Shown in pieces: positions 53,702 to 63,268 of a stretch of 64,000 bases of DNA. The notes below the pieces were generated by a model. That model worked only from the letters and a program-made list of their open reading frames with translations, ran no database searches and was not told the origin of the DNA. This stretch comes from an uncultured virus (IMG/VR IMGVR_UViG_3300021079_000006) (lineage: Duplodnaviria > Heunggongvirae > Uroviricota > Caudoviricetes), in IMG/VR virus record IMGVR_UViG_3300021079_000006, positions 1 through 64,000 of that record. One strand, given 5' to 3'. Within the stretch, counting starts at the first letter, position 1. Each line of letters starts with the position of its first letter. Position numbers and translations under genes: made by a program.

Positions 53702-53947
53702 CTAGTTTAGCGACATGATGACGGTTGGCGCACAGCCCTCTGGAACGTCTTCCAGAACTTCACGAACGGCCCGGAGGTGAGCTTTGATGGCACTTTCCTT
53801 GTTCCCGGTGTAGACGGCCTCGCCAATCTGGTCGCAATTGGAATTTTTGATCTGCGTGAGGTAACTGCGCTCTTGTCGAAGATACCAAGTTTCGACGAAC
53901 CGGGCGTCGTGGGCAGGCGTGGCCTTGATGTAGTCGTGGAGGTGCAT
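53702..53947 (-). CDS. Early hypothetical protein
   Basis: ORF downstream of a promoter-like site. Confidence 0.5.
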   Translation of the reverse strand: MHLHDYIKATPAHDARFVETWYLRQERSYLTQIKNSNCDQIGEAVYTGNKESAIKAHLRAVREVLEDVPEGCAPTVIMSLN

Positions 53948-54136: not shown

Positions 54137-54403
54137 TTAAAATAAAACTGTTTTTGTGGCTATAGCGACCCGTTCGTACACATCGTCGTCCGAGTACGCC
54201 TGAAATACTATCCCGCCTCCGTACTGCTTGTTGTGGAAGCGTTTACCTCCAAGTTTGCGGGCTTTCTTTAGCGCAAACTCGTACAAGTCTACAAGAGTAA
54301 GCGCGGAGCGTTCTTCGGGCGTAATGAATGCGAGGAAATGGATGACCCGGCGCGGGTTGCCATTAATGTCGTTCTTGATGCGAGTGATGCTGTAGTCGTT
54401 CAT
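54137..54403 (-). CDS. Early phage protein
   Basis: D.NGNPR.V.HF, GGKRFHNKQYGGGIVFQ; start taken at MNDYS. Confidence 0.65.
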   Translation of the reverse strand: MNDYSITRIKNDINGNPRRVIHFLAFITPEERSALTLVDLYEFALKKARKLGGKRFHNKQYGGGIVFQAYSDDDVYERVAIATKTVLF

Positions 54404-55576: not shown

Positions 55577-56242
55577 TTAAACTGTTCTGTATGAGGGCCA
55601 ATCGCACACTGCAACGCCCCCGGTTTCAAGTATGCGGCTAGATATGCTTTCGCCAACGGATTGAAGAAATGTTTCCTTGGTCTGATTTGAGATAAGGAGC
55701 GTATCTCTTTCGGACTGATAGCGTCTATCGATTAGGTGGGTAAGTAGGCGATCCTCCCAAGCTGTTTCTCCTCGTTCCTGCATTTCGTCGAGCACCAAGT
55801 AGGCGGGGGCGCAGTAACGCTCGATCACATCTTTCTCAGATCCGCCCTTGTCCCTAAAGGACTCTTTGATGTCTATAAAGAACCCCATCGCCGTTGCGTA
55901 CAATGGGCGTTTCCCGGCGTTTGCAATCATCTTGGCTATCTGCACCGCCATTTGAGTCTTCCCGGTGCCCCTGCGCCCTACCAGCGCAATAATGAATCCA
56001 GTGCCAAGTCGCTTCTCCACCCGAGCCTGAACTTTCAGCCAATGCCCCCCTTGCAGGTCAACGGAAGTAACATTGCGGTGCCGTGGCGGGATGTTCGCTT
56101 TCGCGAGGTACTCGATGCCCTTTTCACGGAGCATCCGAGTCTCCTGCTCTTTCTCGCGTTGCTGGATCTCGTCCTTAGACAAGGTCAGGAACCTCGATTG
56201 TTTCAACAAACTCTCTGCTACGTTTTTCGCTTCGGTGATCAT
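55577..56242 (-). CDS. DnaC/IstB-like AAA+ helicase loader
   Basis: GRRGTGKT, LVLDE, LIDRRY, ISN, I.SRI. Confidence 0.9.
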   Translation of the reverse strand: MITEAKNVAESLLKQSRFLTLSKDEIQQREKEQETRMLREKGIEYLAKANIPPRHRNVTSVDLQGGHWLKVQARVEKRLGTGFIIALVGRRGTGKTQMAVQIAKMIANAGKRPLYATAMGFFIDIKESFRDKGGSEKDVIERYCAPAYLVLDEMQERGETAWEDRLLTHLIDRRYQSERDTLLISNQTKETFLQSVGESISSRILETGGVAVCDWPSYRTV

Positions 56243-56969
56243 GGTTGATTTTTGACTTTTCCTGCTGTTCGTAAAACTGACTGTACCCGGCTGCCATTGC
56301 CGCCCTGAGCGCTGGAATGGCTTTCTCTAGCCCTAGATCCTCGGCTCTCAGCAAAGCATTGCGAAGTGCCGTTGGGGTCATGGGCTTTTTGATCTCGACT
56401 CTGTGCTGCTGAAATTCCGCAAAAACAGATTTAAATTCAACAGTATCGAACCCCGCAGGGTAATCAATTTCCCCCGCAGGGGGATTAAGGGGGGTGCTCT
56501 TTAATTTGGTTCTTGGTTTATGGTTCTTGGTTCTTGGTTCTTGGTTCTTGGTTGGTATACCAGTGTCCGTATACGGCGACTGGTATACCGTGGGTATGTT
56601 TTCTGATACCGTCGGTATGTTTTCCGATACCGCCGGTATACCGTCGGTATTTTTAGACCACCGCTTGGAAACTCTGGCCCTCTGTTGTTCTGAGAGTGAT
56701 TGATACTTTTCCAGCTCTTTGTCGGCTCGCTTATGCGACCAAACGCCGTTGCAGTGAGAAAAGAACTCCCGCAAAACTCGTTCCACGGCTTCGCGTTCGT
56801 CCTGTGCCCGGGCGGACAGCTTTCGGATCAGGTCGTCAACAGTGAGTTGAAGCGGTCCGTTGTTAAGGTAGTAGAGATCGAGCAGGCGGCTGTAAACGCC
56901 GTGCTCAAGTAGGGACAGGTGACCTGTGTCACGCAGGTAGTCCCCAATGTGTCGAGGGTAATGGTTCAT
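56175..56969 (-). CDS. Replication initiator with N-terminal DUF1376/YdaU-like domain
   Basis: YPRHIGDYL.DT.HLS..EHG.Y..LLD.YY, HKR, internal iteron-coded repeats; start taken at MNHYP. Confidence 0.8.
   Translation of the reverse strand: MNHYPRHIGDYLRDTGHLSLLEHGVYSRLLDLYYLNNGPLQLTVDDLIRKLSARAQDEREAVERVLREFFSHCNGVWSHKRADKELEKYQSLSEQQRARVSKRWSKNTDGIPAVSENIPTVSENIPTVYQSPYTDTGIPTKNQEPRTKNHKPRTKLKSTPLNPPAGEIDYPAGFDTVEFKSVFAEFQQHRVEIKKPMTPTALRNALLRAEDLGLEKAIPALRAAMAAGYSQFYEQQEKSKINHDHRSEKRSREFVETIEVPDLV
56505..56652. repeat. Iteron-like repeats / probable replication origin inside the initiator gene
   Basis: Tandem GGTTCTT heptamers plus several GGTATACC / ATACCG..GGTAT units. Confidence 0.65.
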
Positions 56970-57384
56970 CGATTGAATAAATTGATAGATTGATGGATGG
57001 GGACTCCCCCTTGGCAGCGTAGACCTTTTCAACGGTCGCCCGGACGATCTGCCCGTCGTCCTCCCAAAAGCCCTCCAAGGCATCTTGCGTGCCTTTGCAG
57101 AGGTTGTCCCAGTCGGGGCGAGCGTCCATCCACATGCGCCCCTCTGGGTCTTTTTTCCGCTGTAGCCGCTGCGGGCGGGCCATCACAAATAACACTTCAA
57201 TTCCCATCGGCCCGGTGATGGCGGCTACGGGCCGATGTTGGTTTGCAAACAGGCGTATCGCGTCCAGATACCTCGTCGTGCGCTTGTCCTTGAAGAAGAC
57301 TGGCTTGCCTCCTTTAATAAACATTCGCTTGCCCCCGGTCTGAACTGGGATGGCCTCAACGGGTATCTGGAACGTGACCCTCAT
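56929..57384 (-). CDS. rusA: RusA-family Holliday junction resolvase
   Basis: RPDWDNLCKGTQDAL....DDGQIV. Confidence 0.9.
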   Translation of the reverse strand: MRVTFQIPVEAIPVQTGGKRMFIKGGKPVFFKDKRTTRYLDAIRLFANQHRPVAAITGPMGIEVLFVMARPQRLQRKKDPEGRMWMDARPDWDNLCKGTQDALEGFWEDDGQIVRATVEKVYAAKGESPSINLSIYSIDEPLPSTHWGLPA

Positions 57385-57386
57385 GC

Positions 57387-57986
57387 CTAGAACGGGATGT
57401 CGTCGTCGGTCAGATCAATCGGGTCCGATGCGTACACCGTGCGCTGCGGAGTTGCCGGGCGGGACGCTGGAGCGGCTGCTGGAGCTGCCCCGGTCTCGGC
57501 CTGAATGGACTTCGCCACGGCTTGCAGCTTCCGGGACAACGCCGACATTTTGGTGCGGTCGAGCGGTGTTCCCGCCGGGCGGGCGTCGGGATCGTTGAGC
57601 CACGTCGCTTCATACATAGGCTCGCCCTTTTTTGTGTACGCTAGCTCCCGGCCTCCATTCTGGCCAGCCTTGGTCCGCTGCTCGATTGTCACGAGCACTG
57701 CCCGGCCTTCGAGGAACCCGTCGCCTTGAGCCAGTAGGTCAAACCAGTTTGCCGGGGCCTTGAGAGCCTCAAGAAGCATGCGAGACGTGCGTGCTATTGA
57801 TTTATCGGACGAGATATACCCCTCCCAGATGATAGTGCATCCGCCCTGCGCGGGATCTTCTGGATCGATGACAAGAGGTATGCGGACAAACTCCGCTCCG
57901 TTGTCGGTTTCTGACAACCAACCCCCGGTCGTGGGGCGCTGGACATATGCCCGGAAACGTCCGGGTTGCGTGATGTATTTGCTCAT
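57387..57986 (-). CDS. Single-stranded DNA-binding protein (DUF669-like)
   Basis: PG.F.A N-terminus and acidic DDDIPF tail; follows the Sak4-like gene. Confidence 0.7.
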   Translation of the reverse strand: MSKYITQPGRFRAYVQRPTTGGWLSETDNGAEFVRIPLVIDPEDPAQGGCTIIWEGYISSDKSIARTSRMLLEALKAPANWFDLLAQGDGFLEGRAVLVTIEQRTKAGQNGGRELAYTKKGEPMYEATWLNDPDARPAGTPLDRTKMSALSRKLQAVAKSIQAETGAAPAAAPASRPATPQRTVYASDPIDLTDDDIPF

Positions 57987-57988
57987 GG

Positions 57989-58867
57989 TTATTGTAGTGA
58001 CTGAAGTTTAACTATCCCTGCCTTAATGCGGTCAGCTGGAAGGGTTTCAATTGGGGTTTTGGTATACGCAACCTTCTGCTCTTTTGTGAGCGTTGAGGTG
58101 GTGAGTAGTGCAGTGAATTCCTGACGCAACTTTGCTGGAGAATTGGCGTCAACTGCGGCTGCAAACTCTTCGTAAGACAGGTTCAACGTCTCTGGCAGTG
58201 AGAGGCGATTCTTGGCATCCCAGCCCGGGCTCCAACAAGTCTGAATGATGCGGCCTCCACCGATAGTCTTGTCTGGCTTGCCCCCAGCGGACTTAGTTTT
58301 GAACACCTCGTACACGGCGAACAGGCAAGCGTCTGGCCATTCCCGGAGAATCCCGGTGAATCCCTTGTGCCCCTTCATCTCGTAACGGTCCCACTGCTCG
58401 CCCCCGGGCTGAGTAAAGGTCTTAATCTGGACGTGGCTGAGAAGAATGATGCCAAACTTCTGGCGTTCTCGGAGCGTGTCGAGTTTGTTGAGCAGTGCAG
58501 ACAGCTCGAACTCGGCAACCTTGTAGCCTTTGCCAAAGCCGTAGCTTTCAATGTTAGTCTGGCCATCTCTTTTACAGACGTACCCGTGGATAGACCGCTC
58601 CAAGGAGTCTGTGGTGTCAACTACGAGGGTTTTGAAATCCCCGGGATTGGTGGTCAACTCATCGACTGTGGCCAGCGTGTCACCAAACGAGTCAGGGGTG
58701 ATGCGGGCGACATGATCGAGCCCAGTGAGCCCTTGCTCTTGGCTGATAAACAACGGCGATGGCGCTGCTGCTCCAAATGTTGACTTACCGATGCCTTCTG
58801 GACCGGAAAGAAGGATGCGTGGGGGGAGGGATTCTCCGCCTCGTTTAATTTTTGCTAGTATGCTCAT
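57989..58867 (-). CDS. Sak4-like AAA ATPase (single-strand annealing recombinase)
   Basis: GPEGIGKST, LVVDTTD, GFGKGY, LLSH, AKNR. Confidence 0.85.
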   Translation of the reverse strand: MSILAKIKRGGESLPPRILLSGPEGIGKSTFGAAAPSPLFISQEQGLTGLDHVARITPDSFGDTLATVDELTTNPGDFKTLVVDTTDSLERSIHGYVCKRDGQTNIESYGFGKGYKVAEFELSALLNKLDTLRERQKFGIILLSHVQIKTFTQPGGEQWDRYEMKGHKGFTGILREWPDACLFAVYEVFKTKSAGGKPDKTIGGGRIIQTCWSPGWDAKNRLSLPETLNLSYEEFAAAVDANSPAKLRQEFTALLTTSTLTKEQKVAYTKTPIETLPADRIKAGIVKLQSLQ

Positions 58868-58877
58868 ATGTATCGAT

Positions 58878-59933
58878 TTACTGGTTAACTACGAAGTGCC
58901 GCAGAAACTCTTCTGCCGCGTTGTGGAAGCCTGTGCCAAGAGCAAGGGCTTCGTCAATCTCTCCCAGCCTTTTTGTTGGCTGTTCGTAACGGAGAAAGTG
59001 ATACCTGCTGCACTTGCGAAGTGCCGTCAGGCGCGAGTTGGTCAGGAGCTGTTTTTCTCCTTCCTTGAGGGTCAGCTCTGCGTGTTTTGTCGCAGGTCCG
59101 AATCGGATGTTGTCCACGGTCGCCCGGCCTGCGCACAGGTCGTAGAACTCGCAGGTTCCGTACTGCGTGCACGCTCCCGGGTTTCGTGGCCATAGGTTGC
59201 GATTGCGGAAATACAGAAGTTGCTGGGACATGGCCCACGCATCCCCCATGTACTCAAGCAGGTCGTTGTCGGTGCGTCCGACTTCCTTTACAGCAAAGTA
59301 AGAATCCCGCTTTTCATTGATCTCACCAAGCGTCCGGGCGGATAACTCCTCGAGGGTCTCTGGCCGGGTTTGTAAGACGTACCCGGCGTCAGTGTCCGCC
59401 GTCTGTCTCCACTTTTTTCCGTCCTTTGTGCGTACCCGCTCCCCGGCTGCGTCGAGGACGATCTTGACGCCCTCCTCGTCCAGCAACGGAATGTTGCCAA
59501 GCTTATACCCGGGCTTGCGGACAACGTCGTACACGACCGTGTTGGCGTCGATGCCCCGGGAGCGCAGGCTTAGGATGTACTTGCTGATCTGGGTGTCCAT
59601 TGTGAGACGCCCCCAATACATCGAGTCGGCGTCGATTGAGTCGCTGGTCGTTTTGTGCTCGAGGACCTTGAGCACCCCGGTCTGCTTGTGACGCAGGACC
59701 CCGTCGATCTTCCCGGCTTCGAGGAAAGACCGAGAGGGAGCCTCGGTCTCCGGGTTTAGCAGTGGGAACGTGAATTCCGACTCCACTTCAAGAACGTCGT
59801 GCGCCTCGAGCACCGGGATGAATGACTCCACCCAGCCCATGAATAGGCCCCGGGCTTTGGCCAGCGCCACGTCGGTTGCCGGGACCCGGGAAAGACCGCC
59901 AGTGACTGCGGTACGATAGATTGATGTGTCCAT
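58878..59933 (-). CDS. Cas4/RecB-like PD-(D/E)XK exonuclease, circularly permuted
   Basis: E.EF, GKIDG, EHKT, Q...Y, C.....C.....C, followed by the normally N-terminal TNSR....C.R...Y..GT.FH...E segment. Confidence 0.85.
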   Translation of the reverse strand: MDTSIYRTAVTGGLSRVPATDVALAKARGLFMGWVESFIPVLEAHDVLEVESEFTFPLLNPETEAPSRSFLEAGKIDGVLRHKQTGVLKVLEHKTTSDSIDADSMYWGRLTMDTQISKYILSLRSRGIDANTVVYDVVRKPGYKLGNIPLLDEEGVKIVLDAAGERVRTKDGKKWRQTADTDAGYVLQTRPETLEELSARTLGEINEKRDSYFAVKEVGRTDNDLLEYMGDAWAMSQQLLYFRNRNLWPRNPGACTQYGTCEFYDLCAGRATVDNIRFGPATKHAELTLKEGEKQLLTNSRLTALRKCSRYHFLRYEQPTKRLGEIDEALALGTGFHNAAEEFLRHFVVNQ

Positions 59934-59934
59934 G

Positions 59935-60552
59935 TTAGATTTCGGTTTCTGCTTCTTCTGTTTCGATTAATTCGTCGTCTCCGTCAACCCGGCGATTGGC
60001 AACAAGCTCTGGGTAGCCGCAAGTGATTAGGTTTCTACGGAGCGTTGTGCTGCTCAACAACTGGTTGTTTTTAAAACCAACGACCCACTGGTCAAACTTG
60101 GAAAACTGGCCCTTCTCCCCGGCAATAGTGTCGCCCACGATGTCCCACCAGATAACGCAAGCTGTGTGCGCTCGTTCTGGCTCTGGAAGAAAGCCGACTT
60201 GCCATACCCATTCCTGCACCTTTCTGCCTTTTTTTAGGACACTGAACTCTTGAGTGGCATAATAAAGCGCCTCCTCTTCCAATGTGTAAGGTCTCCACGA
60301 GTTTTCATAAATTGAGTCACAGACTCGATAAAGCGCTAAAAACTGACTTGGACTTAATTTAAGTTCCGCTACTTCGGCATCCCGATTTTTAGGCTCCATG
60401 CGATTGATAAGCACAACCCTTCTTAACATTGAGGTGGCGCTGAAGTTCCCGGCAACCGCTTTGAGCATTGAGACCTGTTTTGCATCGGACCCGGTGACGG
60501 CCTGTAGCAGACCTCGGGCAATTTTGCTGTCCCACTTTTTGAGTGTTTTCAT
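59935..60552 (-). CDS. Hypothetical protein
   Basis: 205-aa coupled ORF. Confidence 0.65.
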   Translation of the reverse strand: MKTLKKWDSKIARGLLQAVTGSDAKQVSMLKAVAGNFSATSMLRRVVLINRMEPKNRDAEVAELKLSPSQFLALYRVCDSIYENSWRPYTLEEEALYYATQEFSVLKKGRKVQEWVWQVGFLPEPERAHTACVIWWDIVGDTIAGEKGQFSKFDQWVVGFKNNQLLSSTTLRRNLITCGYPELVANRRVDGDDELIETEEAETEI

Positions 60553-60767
60553 TATTCAAGACGTGAAAGGGTTTCGATTGCTGTGAAGAAGGTGATGGCG
60601 AGAAGCGCCAGAATGGCGAGGAACTCGTATGGGGTTTGCGCCAGCCTGTAGAGCCAGTACACGTCTGCTGCGCCAAGGACGAGCAGCGCCACAACAAAGG
60701 GCAGTGGGCGCTCTGGAGCCCGGTCTGCGGGGCTGCTGGGGAGGAGAATGCGAGGTGGTTTAGACAT
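60552..60767 (-). CDS. Small two-TM membrane protein
   Basis: Two hydrophobic helices; first gene 3' of the ribozyme. Confidence 0.6.
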   Translation of the reverse strand: MSKPPRILLPSSPADRAPERPLPFVVALLVLGAADVYWLYRLAQTPYEFLAILALLAITFFTAIETLSRLE

Positions 60768-60800
60768 ATGATCGATTAATTTTAATTATTACACTCTGAC

Positions 60801-60851
60801 GGCCTCGTCAGCGCCCGCATTACGGGTCGGACCCCCGGAGGGGTTTCGGCC
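60801..60851 (-). ncRNA. Hammerhead ribozyme, type II
   Basis: Minus strand GGCC-GAAA-CCCC(UCCG)GGGG-UC^-CGACCCG(UAAUG)CGGGCG-CUGACGA-GGCC contains all core nucleotides and three stems. Confidence 0.88.
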
Positions 60852-61024
60852 TAGGCTTTACGCACACTGTAGTCAATACCTTCTAGCCCCCCGTTTTCAC
60901 TAAGGTGCTGGCGGGCCAACTTCCTTGCGTCCTCGGAAGTTACGGCCTCAACTGTGAAACTGCCATTACAAGAGGAAGGATAGTAGCGGCAAGAATAAGA
61001 GCAGATGAAGGATGCGGCGTTCAT
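60851..61024 (-). CDS. 57-aa early protein (not in the ORF track)
   Basis: MNAASFICSYSC...FTVEAVTSEDARKLA...RKA*; A-rich leader; the VEA....A...A motif is common in phage early proteins. Confidence 0.55.
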   Translation of the reverse strand: MNAASFICSYSCRYYPSSCNGSFTVEAVTSEDARKLARQHLSENGGLEGIDYSVRKA

Positions 61025-61156
61025 TGGATTAGTTTATTTTTAAGGTTCACTGCGACCGACGAAATGAACTTATTCCACATCCATTTTACTGGCGAGCAAT
61101 TTGTGAATTTATTTTCAGATCTTTTCCACAAAAACACACAAGTGGCTAGTTTTAAA

Positions 61157-62557: not shown

Positions 62558-63268
62558 TTAGAACGTCCTAGTCTCCCACAACTTCCGAGCGCCCGCAACA
62601 TCAATGCTTGACTTCCCGATGCGGTCATTCACTGCGTTATGCAGACAAACTCCCCACGCAAAGAATTCACCAAAGTCAGCAGGGTTAAGTGCCATCCATT
62701 CTTTAAGGTGTGCCTCGCACGGGCAACCGTCAAACGGGAGAGAAGCCACCCAAGCCTCAAGCCAGTATCGCATGTCACCAAACGGGATGCATGTGGCATC
62801 AGCCCGGAGGCTATAGAGGTGCAGCTCCGCCCAGTACCGGGCTCCCTGCATAAGAATGCGGCTCTTTTGAAGTTCGCTACGCTGCTCAATCCGTTCAACC
62901 TCATTGCCGACATCAAACACCCATTTGTCGTGCGTTTCCCAGTCCGTGGACGTGGCTATTGCGGCTTCCCGCTCCAATGCCATTGCTACGACGTGCTGAC
63001 GGTGATACGGGGCAGCAGGGTCGTCCCCGGGCTCCTCGAGCTTGGGGTTGTCGGTGTCAAACTTGGTCACCTGCTCATCGGTAATGCCGTCGCGTTTGCA
63101 CAAAAACGCTTCGACCATCTCGTGGATTGCCACGAGCAGGACCGAAACGTCCCGGCCACCGTACTCTGGGACCTTGAGCATTAGTGCTCCATCGGCCAAC
63201 CATTCCCAGTCGCCAGCCGTTGGGTAACGCATTGCGCTGGGGTCTACAGTCTTAATTTCAATCCTCAT
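62558..63268 (-). CDS. HExxE domain + Erv1/Alr-like domain fusion (copy B)
   Basis: Colinear paralogue of 27..728; IHEMVEA, WAELHLY, LPFDGCPCEAH, LHNAVNDRIGK. Confidence 0.7.
   Translation of the reverse strand: MRIEIKTVDPSAMRYPTAGDWEWLADGALMLKVPEYGGRDVSVLLVAIHEMVEAFLCKRDGITDEQVTKFDTDNPKLEEPGDDPAAPYHRQHVVAMALEREAAIATSTDWETHDKWVFDVGNEVERIEQRSELQKSRILMQGARYWAELHLYSLRADATCIPFGDMRYWLEAWVASLPFDGCPCEAHLKEWMALNPADFGEFFAWGVCLHNAVNDRIGKSSIDVAGARKLWETRTF

Follow-up and report, generated by a model that had tools for sequence, protein, structure and literature searches.

Type II hammerhead ribozymes flank variable genes in prophages, where long transcripts were proposed to be processed into gene-length mRNAs (Perreault et al. 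2011; PMC3088659). According to the accessible text of that paper, tandem prophage hammerheads cleaved both in vitro and in E. coli, and many hammerheads have no recognisable tertiary contact. Two reviews, in their accessible parts, call the function of phage hammerheads open (PMC6765202, PMC6155905), and the available text of a further one holds nothing more on function (PMC13481778). As for tertiary contacts, a conserved reverse Hoogsteen pair is described for types I and III in the accessible part of PMC6155905. In the minimal hammerhead, a U seven bases past the cut forms a trans-Hoogsteen pair with an A of loop II (O'Rourke, Estell and Scott 2015, as described in the available text of PMC9217987).

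Hammerhead motif and its genomic setting

The window, which is the whole 64,000-nt stretch of DNA that was analysed, belongs to a 66,054-nt contig that encodes tail, baseplate and virion families and is thus of phage origin. An initial annotation had placed a type II hammerhead at 60801-60851, at the head of a recombination/replication operon. The complete core and all three stems that it described are indeed present on the minus strand (Table 1), and run from 5' to 3' as stem II, GAAA, stem III, GUC, stem I, CUGACGA and stem II. The core follows the pattern C3-U4-G5-A6-N7-G8-A9, G12-A13-A14, A15.1-U16.1 and H17, and is surrounded by the three stems, with stem II closed by G10.1-C11.1. Loops close stems I and III; stem II is open, which makes the hammerhead type II, as annotated. 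The predicted cut also coincides with the annotated one, with C17 of the GUC at 60830; we take its position from the established hammerhead consensus, in which cleavage falls between GUC and the following C. It lies 62 nt from the ATG at 60767, close to the annotated distance of about 60 nt.

A descriptor covering types I-III yielded a single match in the contig, namely this hammerhead, and none in 60 block-wise dinucleotide shuffles. A relaxed descriptor gave a weak match near 1284 on the plus strand, which has a UUGA core and a 2-bp stem II and runs antisense to a gene, and was treated as chance. The Infernal search with Rfam models suggested in the initial annotation gave a divided result: Hammerhead_II (RF02276) aligns over the full model length with 25.2 bits (E 0.012), yet stays below the gathering score of 37 that defines curated membership. 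RF02276 models a pseudoknot class, and the window hammerhead lacks that pseudoknot. At the gathering level Rfam had no match in the whole window or in 14 related loci, and a family model found no second hammerhead in the window (next match E 0.76). The isolated 51-mer has the hammerhead fold as its minimum free energy (MFE) structure (-22.7 kcal/mol), with a z-score of just -0.79. Altogether, the element is a real ribozyme of an already known kind in an ordinary setting, and its sequence makes it highly probable that it is genuine and able to cleave.

Table 1. Features of the hammerhead locus, in window coordinates unless a related locus is named
Feature	Position	Strand	Basis
Type II hammerhead ribozyme	60851-60801	minus	sequence; descriptor and shuffles; Rfam RF02276; compensatory changes in 10 family copies
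Stem II, 4 bp, GGCC/GGCC	60851-60848 / 60804-60801	minus	sequence
Core GAAA	60847-60844	minus	sequence
Stem III, ACCCC/GGGGU with UCCG loop	60844-60831	minus	sequence
GUC, C17	60830	minus	sequence
Stem I, 6 bp, bulged A60827, loop UAAUG	60829-60812	minus	sequence
Core CUGACGA	60811-60805	minus	sequence
Predicted cleavage site, GUC/C	C60830/C60829	minus	hammerhead consensus
U1.7, first base of loop I (UAAUG)	60822	minus	U in 10/10 family copies and in 95% of the 17-nt class among the matches listed
A directly 5' of stem II, middle base of UAG, predicted U1.7 partner	60852	minus	A in 10/10 family copies
Anti-core hairpin CUGACG/CGUCAG, 6 bp, loop AGGC; tail GUCAG at 60800-60796	60796-60811	minus	folding, family, covariation with N7
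Predicted early promoter: -35 TCGCCA (61095-61090), 17-nt spacer, -10 TAAGTT (61072-61067), start near 61060	61067-61095	minus	read by eye
57-aa accessory ORF; UAG stop (60853-60851) overlaps the ribozyme	60851-61024	minus	ORF list
Translation initiation region, 28 nt, A/U-rich, without Shine-Dalgarno, ending ATCGATCAT	60768-60795	minus	sequence
71-aa hydrophobic ORF, first gene past the predicted cut	60552-60767	minus	ORF list, relatives
Downstream block: 205-aa ORF, PD-(D/E)XK exonuclease, Sak4-like annealing protein, SSB, RusA, DUF1376 protein, DnaC-like loader	55577-60552	minus	Pfam, PHROGs
T-arm-like hairpins in related loci	L006:895 and 1085, L011:5096, L014:301, L017:4480, L010:11332, L009:6286		

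All ORFs of at least 250 aa lie on the minus strand, and a Shine-Dalgarno-like motif precedes 4 of the 52 long minus-strand ORFs. The promoter-like boxes and leader recur, again by eye, at the equivalent place in four related loci (L002, L010, L554 and L555); a consensus promoter scan did not include the site among its listings. This site is compatible with the annotated separation of the first early cistron by self-processing, the cut itself being predicted. The 57-aa ORF has no Pfam or PHROG match and only Atlas matches under 0.9, and its tblastn matches are confined to loci identical to the window. Past the predicted cut, leaders similar to the translation initiation region stand ahead of other cassettes, and the 71-aa ORF is kept in close relatives but has no family match in Pfam or PHROGs. 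The recombination and replication genes announced by the initial annotation do follow, from the exonuclease to the DnaC-like loader. On the same strand, a 236-aa ORF with an Erv1/Alr domain lies at 62558-63268. The window contains neither tRNA nor tmRNA, and a tRNA-linked role was rejected on this ground. Two features were absent from the initial annotation: the ribozyme starts inside the upstream UAG, and the GUCAG that follows stem II is able to pair with the core.

Hammerheads in related loci and in the wider type II class

Related loci were gathered via the exonuclease, Sak4 and the small gene ahead of the promoter. Screening of 81 loci revealed 10 distinct hammerheads, in L001 (identical to the window), L002 (two), L006, L012 (three), L015 (two) and L555. 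No variation occurs among these 10 copies in the core, stem II, U1.7 or the A that immediately precedes stem II, whereas stems I and III carry two or three Watson-Crick pair types at eight positions, with one A-C exception, which amounts to compensatory change in both stems. A stop triplet lies 6-8 nt 5' of G12 in eight copies, and the other two have a spacer after the stop. Three copies (L002:2430, L012:4736 and L012:5121) bear an extra U between A9 and G10.1, to which the first descriptor was blind.

The placement of these copies bears on the annotated link to the replication operon. Among 18 related promoter-to-exonuclease early regions, selected for being distinct and of sufficient length (L014 and L555 are truncated), five have a hammerhead, and the 13 that have none keep the anchor gene and the downstream block; the ribozyme is therefore not tied to the replication operon, although the genes named by the initial annotation do lie downstream of it. 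The seven copies in early regions stand behind six different ORF families, and copies elsewhere separate accessory genes or belong to a second array that follows the DnaC-like gene (L012, L015). Compared to L010 and L554, in which the same gene comes directly after the promoter, L555 has an extra unit of ORF, hammerhead and start region ahead of that gene. Such slots are filled in L006, L011, L014 and L017 by a T-arm-like hairpin of 7 bp with the loop UUC-N-A-Y-C, shortly ahead of start codons, and in some relatives by neither element; the window has no T-arm-like hairpin. In L002 and L015 this hairpin doubles as hammerhead stem III. Against cultured phages, the exonuclease matched only Tunturiibacter phages, at ~30%, and within the 17 kb examined these relatives have no hammerhead. 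Taken together, the sequence comparison indicates that a swappable accessory-gene cassette has the ribozyme as its 3' end, and that the ribozyme travels with cassettes and is no fixture of the replication block.

Several observations concern the arrays themselves. Some relatives encode in their first early array the cassette proteins that others encode in the second (window 54137-54400 and 53702-53947; L006, L012, L014, L015), so cassettes move between arrays. At the head of the second array of the window stand two further early-promoter-like sites of similar -35 box and leader (~55005-54960 and 54085-54030, minus strand), near a terminator-like hairpin at about 55100-55065 on the same strand. 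A strong minus-strand hairpin at 53702-53620 (-44.6 kcal/mol, z -6.2), with an alternative short 3' hairpin, lies in this array, in the gap that separates the stop of an 81-aa ORF from the following ATG. It has no Rfam match; L005/L009 contain a copy at 90% identity that has undergone a U-G-compatible change, and L017/L018, L558 and L581 contain partial look-alikes. L008 and L018 belong to one 94-kb viral record, which combines one window-identical copy with another Sak4 module of 72% identity, and is probably two related phages joined.

Three pattern scans of IMG/VR viral sequences and one genome scan returned at least 135, 131, 137 and 120 stretches, respectively; for the third viral scan, the total was estimated at roughly 2,900 viral stretches. 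After the structure filter, and with repeats and filter failures dropped, at least 395 distinct type II hammerheads were obtained, at least 89 of them new from the third viral scan (at least 137 loci) and at least 11 from the genome scan (at least 120 loci). Because parts of the stems are specified in the patterns, class sizes carry a bias; position -5, position 1.7 and the tail beyond stem II were left free. An ORF stop lies 5-12 nt upstream of G12 in 187 of the 287 with enough flank among the first 295 matches listed, against a control mean of 8.6, and the median distance from cut to ATG is 57 nt among the matches listed.

Among the matches listed, two classes differ in stem I. The long class has a stem I region of 19-26 nt and a loop I-tail pseudoknot in 64% (12% in the control), whereas the short class has this pseudoknot no more often than the control (5% and 5%). 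The short-class members with a 17-nt stem I (n=199 among the matches listed) have a 6-bp stem I and a 4-bp stem II, with a fifth pair in 6%; stem II is paired in 97-100% of them, its first three pairs having been a selection criterion. The window hammerhead falls outside the pseudoknotted class, which requires at least four pairs, since its loop I UAAU faces the tail GUCA with one A-C mismatch. Within the family, only L006 and one L012 copy pair loop I fully with the tail, with one wobble. The pseudoknot was also rejected as the reason for GUCA, as the short class shows no excess of it. The pseudoknot-less class escapes the Rfam threshold and is thereby under-annotated. In the long class, the cultured Streptomyces phage Paedore (L609, NC_054671.1) and Rhodobacter phage RcRudolph (L610, OP009285.1) have, in the stretches read, five and two unannotated type II hammerheads between small genes, respectively.

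The putative U-A contact and the tail complementary to the core

U1.7 and the A 5' of stem II occur together in 189 of the 199 listed members with a 17-nt stem I. The swapped arrangement, A1.7 with U before stem II, accounts for 7 of the 199; short-class members with swapped bases occur in L261, L312, L333, L359, L416 and L420, and the seven cases are probably one subfamily. In the window, U60822 lies (after the bulge) seven bases past the cut, and A60852 occupies the equivalent of the end of loop II. These positions and their conservation suggest that U60822 and A60852 probably form a tertiary pair, with the A inside the stop codon; both A60852 and G11.4 are part of the UAG. The available text of PMC3088659 mentions no core-masking tail, and no single U-A pair for type II. 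A pseudoknot-less class with a conserved pair of U1.7 and A was not found in the literature searched. That literature, mostly without subscription papers, also held nothing on a core-masking tail or a stop-codon overlap, from which their absence from print is not established.

The tail GUCAG, together with the last C of stem II, can form an anti-core hairpin that cannot coexist with the active fold. With the tail included, the masked fold becomes the MFE structure, 1.9 kcal/mol below the active secondary structure, with tertiary contacts left out of the calculation. In ViennaRNA predictions of the tailed precursor, stem II reaches a probability of at most 0.04, against 0.5-1.0 for the masked hairpin; some 5' flanks make stem II improbable even before the tail appears. 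In the 3' product, the hairpin has a probability of ~1.0 up to the start region and of 0.51 at 60740, when the next ORF is added. The family tails are GUCAG in nine copies and GUUAG in one, and stem II and tail are invariant within the family, so neither yields covariation there.

The wider class does provide such evidence. A perfect complement of the own core lies within 21 nt in 54 of 211 short-class members among the matches listed, compared to 1-5 in six control windows; ~70% of the listed short class is without the tail, and none of the 11 bacterial-genome copies listed has it. The first tail base tracks N7: among the matches listed, which include related sequences and one family copy (L164), GUCAG and AUCAG occur 32 and 1 times with C7, and 7 and 22 times with U7. 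After clustering at two mismatches, the counts among the matches listed, in the same order, are 21, 1, 6 and 18 (p 8e-7); the independent viral set alone is weak (7, 1, 4 and 6 among 87 listed, p 0.066), and looser clusters chain together, with loss of the covariation (p 0.24 and 0.49). Wobble variants at U4 and G5 show no enrichment among the matches listed. The non-pairing A6-C variant is enriched there (11 against 0-4), probably stemming from GCC-AG at the stem II end, and the tail equals the 3' strand of stem II plus AG in 31 of 61 listed cases. Overall, we judge it probable from these patterns that the tail is selected as RNA pairing. Tails are commoner with C7 (32/74) than with U7 (29/122) among the matches listed, and the window has C7; masking of the AUG in CUGAUGA was rejected for these reasons.

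Proposed function and comparison with known systems

We favour, at a probability of roughly 0.6, the reading that the hammerhead at the cassette 3' end cuts the early transcript 21 nt after the stop and acts as an insulator, with the tail as lock and cap. Punctuation or insulation as such we consider rather likely, and within the case of a selected tail a slightly larger share goes to a lock and cap than to a switch. A transcript from the predicted early promoter would run through the cassette gene and the hammerhead. With the UAG free of the ribosome, stem II would form, U60822 would dock on A60852, and the RNA would be cut at GUC. The cassette mRNA upstream would retain its stop codon, with a 3' end 21 nt further on that is formed by the stem III UCCG hairpin and bears a cyclic phosphate; the downstream mRNA would begin with a 5'-OH. 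The tail would then capture the core as CUGACG/CGUCAG, driving out the 4-bp stem II and preventing re-ligation, which would make the cut irreversible. The product would carry two stacked 5' hairpins, stem I and the core-tail hairpin, followed by the open 28-nt A/U-rich start region, and its 5' end would be identical whichever cassette stands upstream. The tail, favoured by 1.9 kcal/mol, also competes before the cut, for which reason we expect slowed, incomplete cleavage.

The same folds could instead serve a translation-gated switch, in which a ribosome ending at the UAG covers A60852 together with the 5' strand of stem II during synthesis of the tail. The masked hairpin would then win and the message stay intact, with cutting mainly when the cassette gene is poorly translated. 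The stop would supply the sole tertiary contact and the start of stem II, and the selected tail would drive the RNA into an inactive fold for as long as the ribosome occupies the stop. We regard such a translation-sensing ribozyme as unlikely, though several features fit it: the tertiary A and G11.4 lie inside the stop codon, active and masked folds are within 3 kcal/mol of each other in 52 of 61 tailed copies among the matches listed, and completion of stem II precedes that of the tail by just 5 nt. A stop within 7 nt of G12 is also likelier in tailed than in untailed copies (32/60 vs 50/146 among the matches listed, which are non-independent; p 0.013), but many untailed copies have a stop equally near and the difference is gone at 12 nt (p 0.24, matches listed). 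Moreover, two of the 10 family copies have a spacer after the stop, and refolding can presumably follow once the ribosome departs the stop codon. Less probable still is that the tail keeps the ribozyme mostly off, and that a silenced or near-neutral element persists mainly as a repeated DNA unit which, with the start region, serves cassette recombination. The masked MFE fold, the 13 of 18 relatives that manage without a hammerhead, and the near-identical copies and leaders that recur between cassettes would agree with this. Against it, stem sequences vary by paired changes while the core, the lengths of the stems, U1.7 and A(-5) stay constant, a pattern indicative of selection for the active fold, and the excess of U7-G wobble (7) over C7-A (1) fits pairing on the transcribed strand.

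The narrower reading of the initial annotation, a dedicated processing element tuning the recombination/replication genes, draws on the position of these genes downstream on the same strand and on HHphage of haloviruses HF1/HF2, which stands before an early helicase with a 5' end mapped near the cut (PMC3088659, accessible text). We consider it improbable, as the hammerhead is missing from most related early regions that keep the anchor gene and the downstream block, and other copies stand in accessory and second-array positions. The least probable proposal is cut-and-religate, whereby cistrons between two copies would circularise or shuffle via the shared GGCC stem II under control of the tail. 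Tandem copies with identical stem II do exist in L002, L012 and L015, but the window has a single copy, and according to the accessible text of PMC3088659 Perreault et al. found no circular or spliced products. Tailed copies also have neighbours no more often than untailed ones (6/30 vs 27/88 among the matches listed), which leaves the tail unsupported as a circularisation guard.

One more hammerhead copy adds little by itself; the two added features permit single-base tests. The tail can be broken and repaired against N7, and the tertiary A can be changed while a stop codon is kept, and together these features could separate constitutive punctuation, a post-cleavage lock and translation gating. 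A self-masking tail is a testable idea on the control of such ribozymes, and the pseudoknot-less class represents a small natural insulator that synthetic biology might employ. Should translation sensing prove true, each swappable gene would report its own translation by keeping or severing its link to the downstream phage operon, and the design would extend to about three in ten of the short-class hammerheads in phages.

The processing idea favoured here is the one already published (PMC3088659, accessible text). The window hammerhead resembles RF02276 and the type II hammerheads of Perreault et al. in topology, core and place between small variable phage genes, often in tandem. It differs in having no loop I-tail pseudoknot of four Watson-Crick pairs, in its fixed 6-bp stem I and 4-bp stem II, and in a tail that pairs with the core. 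With the minimal hammerhead it shares the U 7 nt past the cut and an A where the last base of loop II would be; however, its stem II is open, the A comes from the 5' flank within a stop codon, and the contact is proposed from conservation only. Like HHphage, it stands ahead of early replication genes. According to the accessible text of PMC3088659, HHphage has a variant core, lies 13 nt ahead of the first ORF and has had its end mapped in vivo, whereas the window copy is canonical, intercistronic and known from its sequence. Finally, like RiboJ as described in the available text of PMC6206723, its self-cleavage would place one and the same hairpin-capped 5' end before the start region in any upstream context, a likeness of working only. 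RiboJ was engineered from the sTRSV ribozyme with an added hairpin, whereas the caps in the window would be stem I and the core-tail hairpin.
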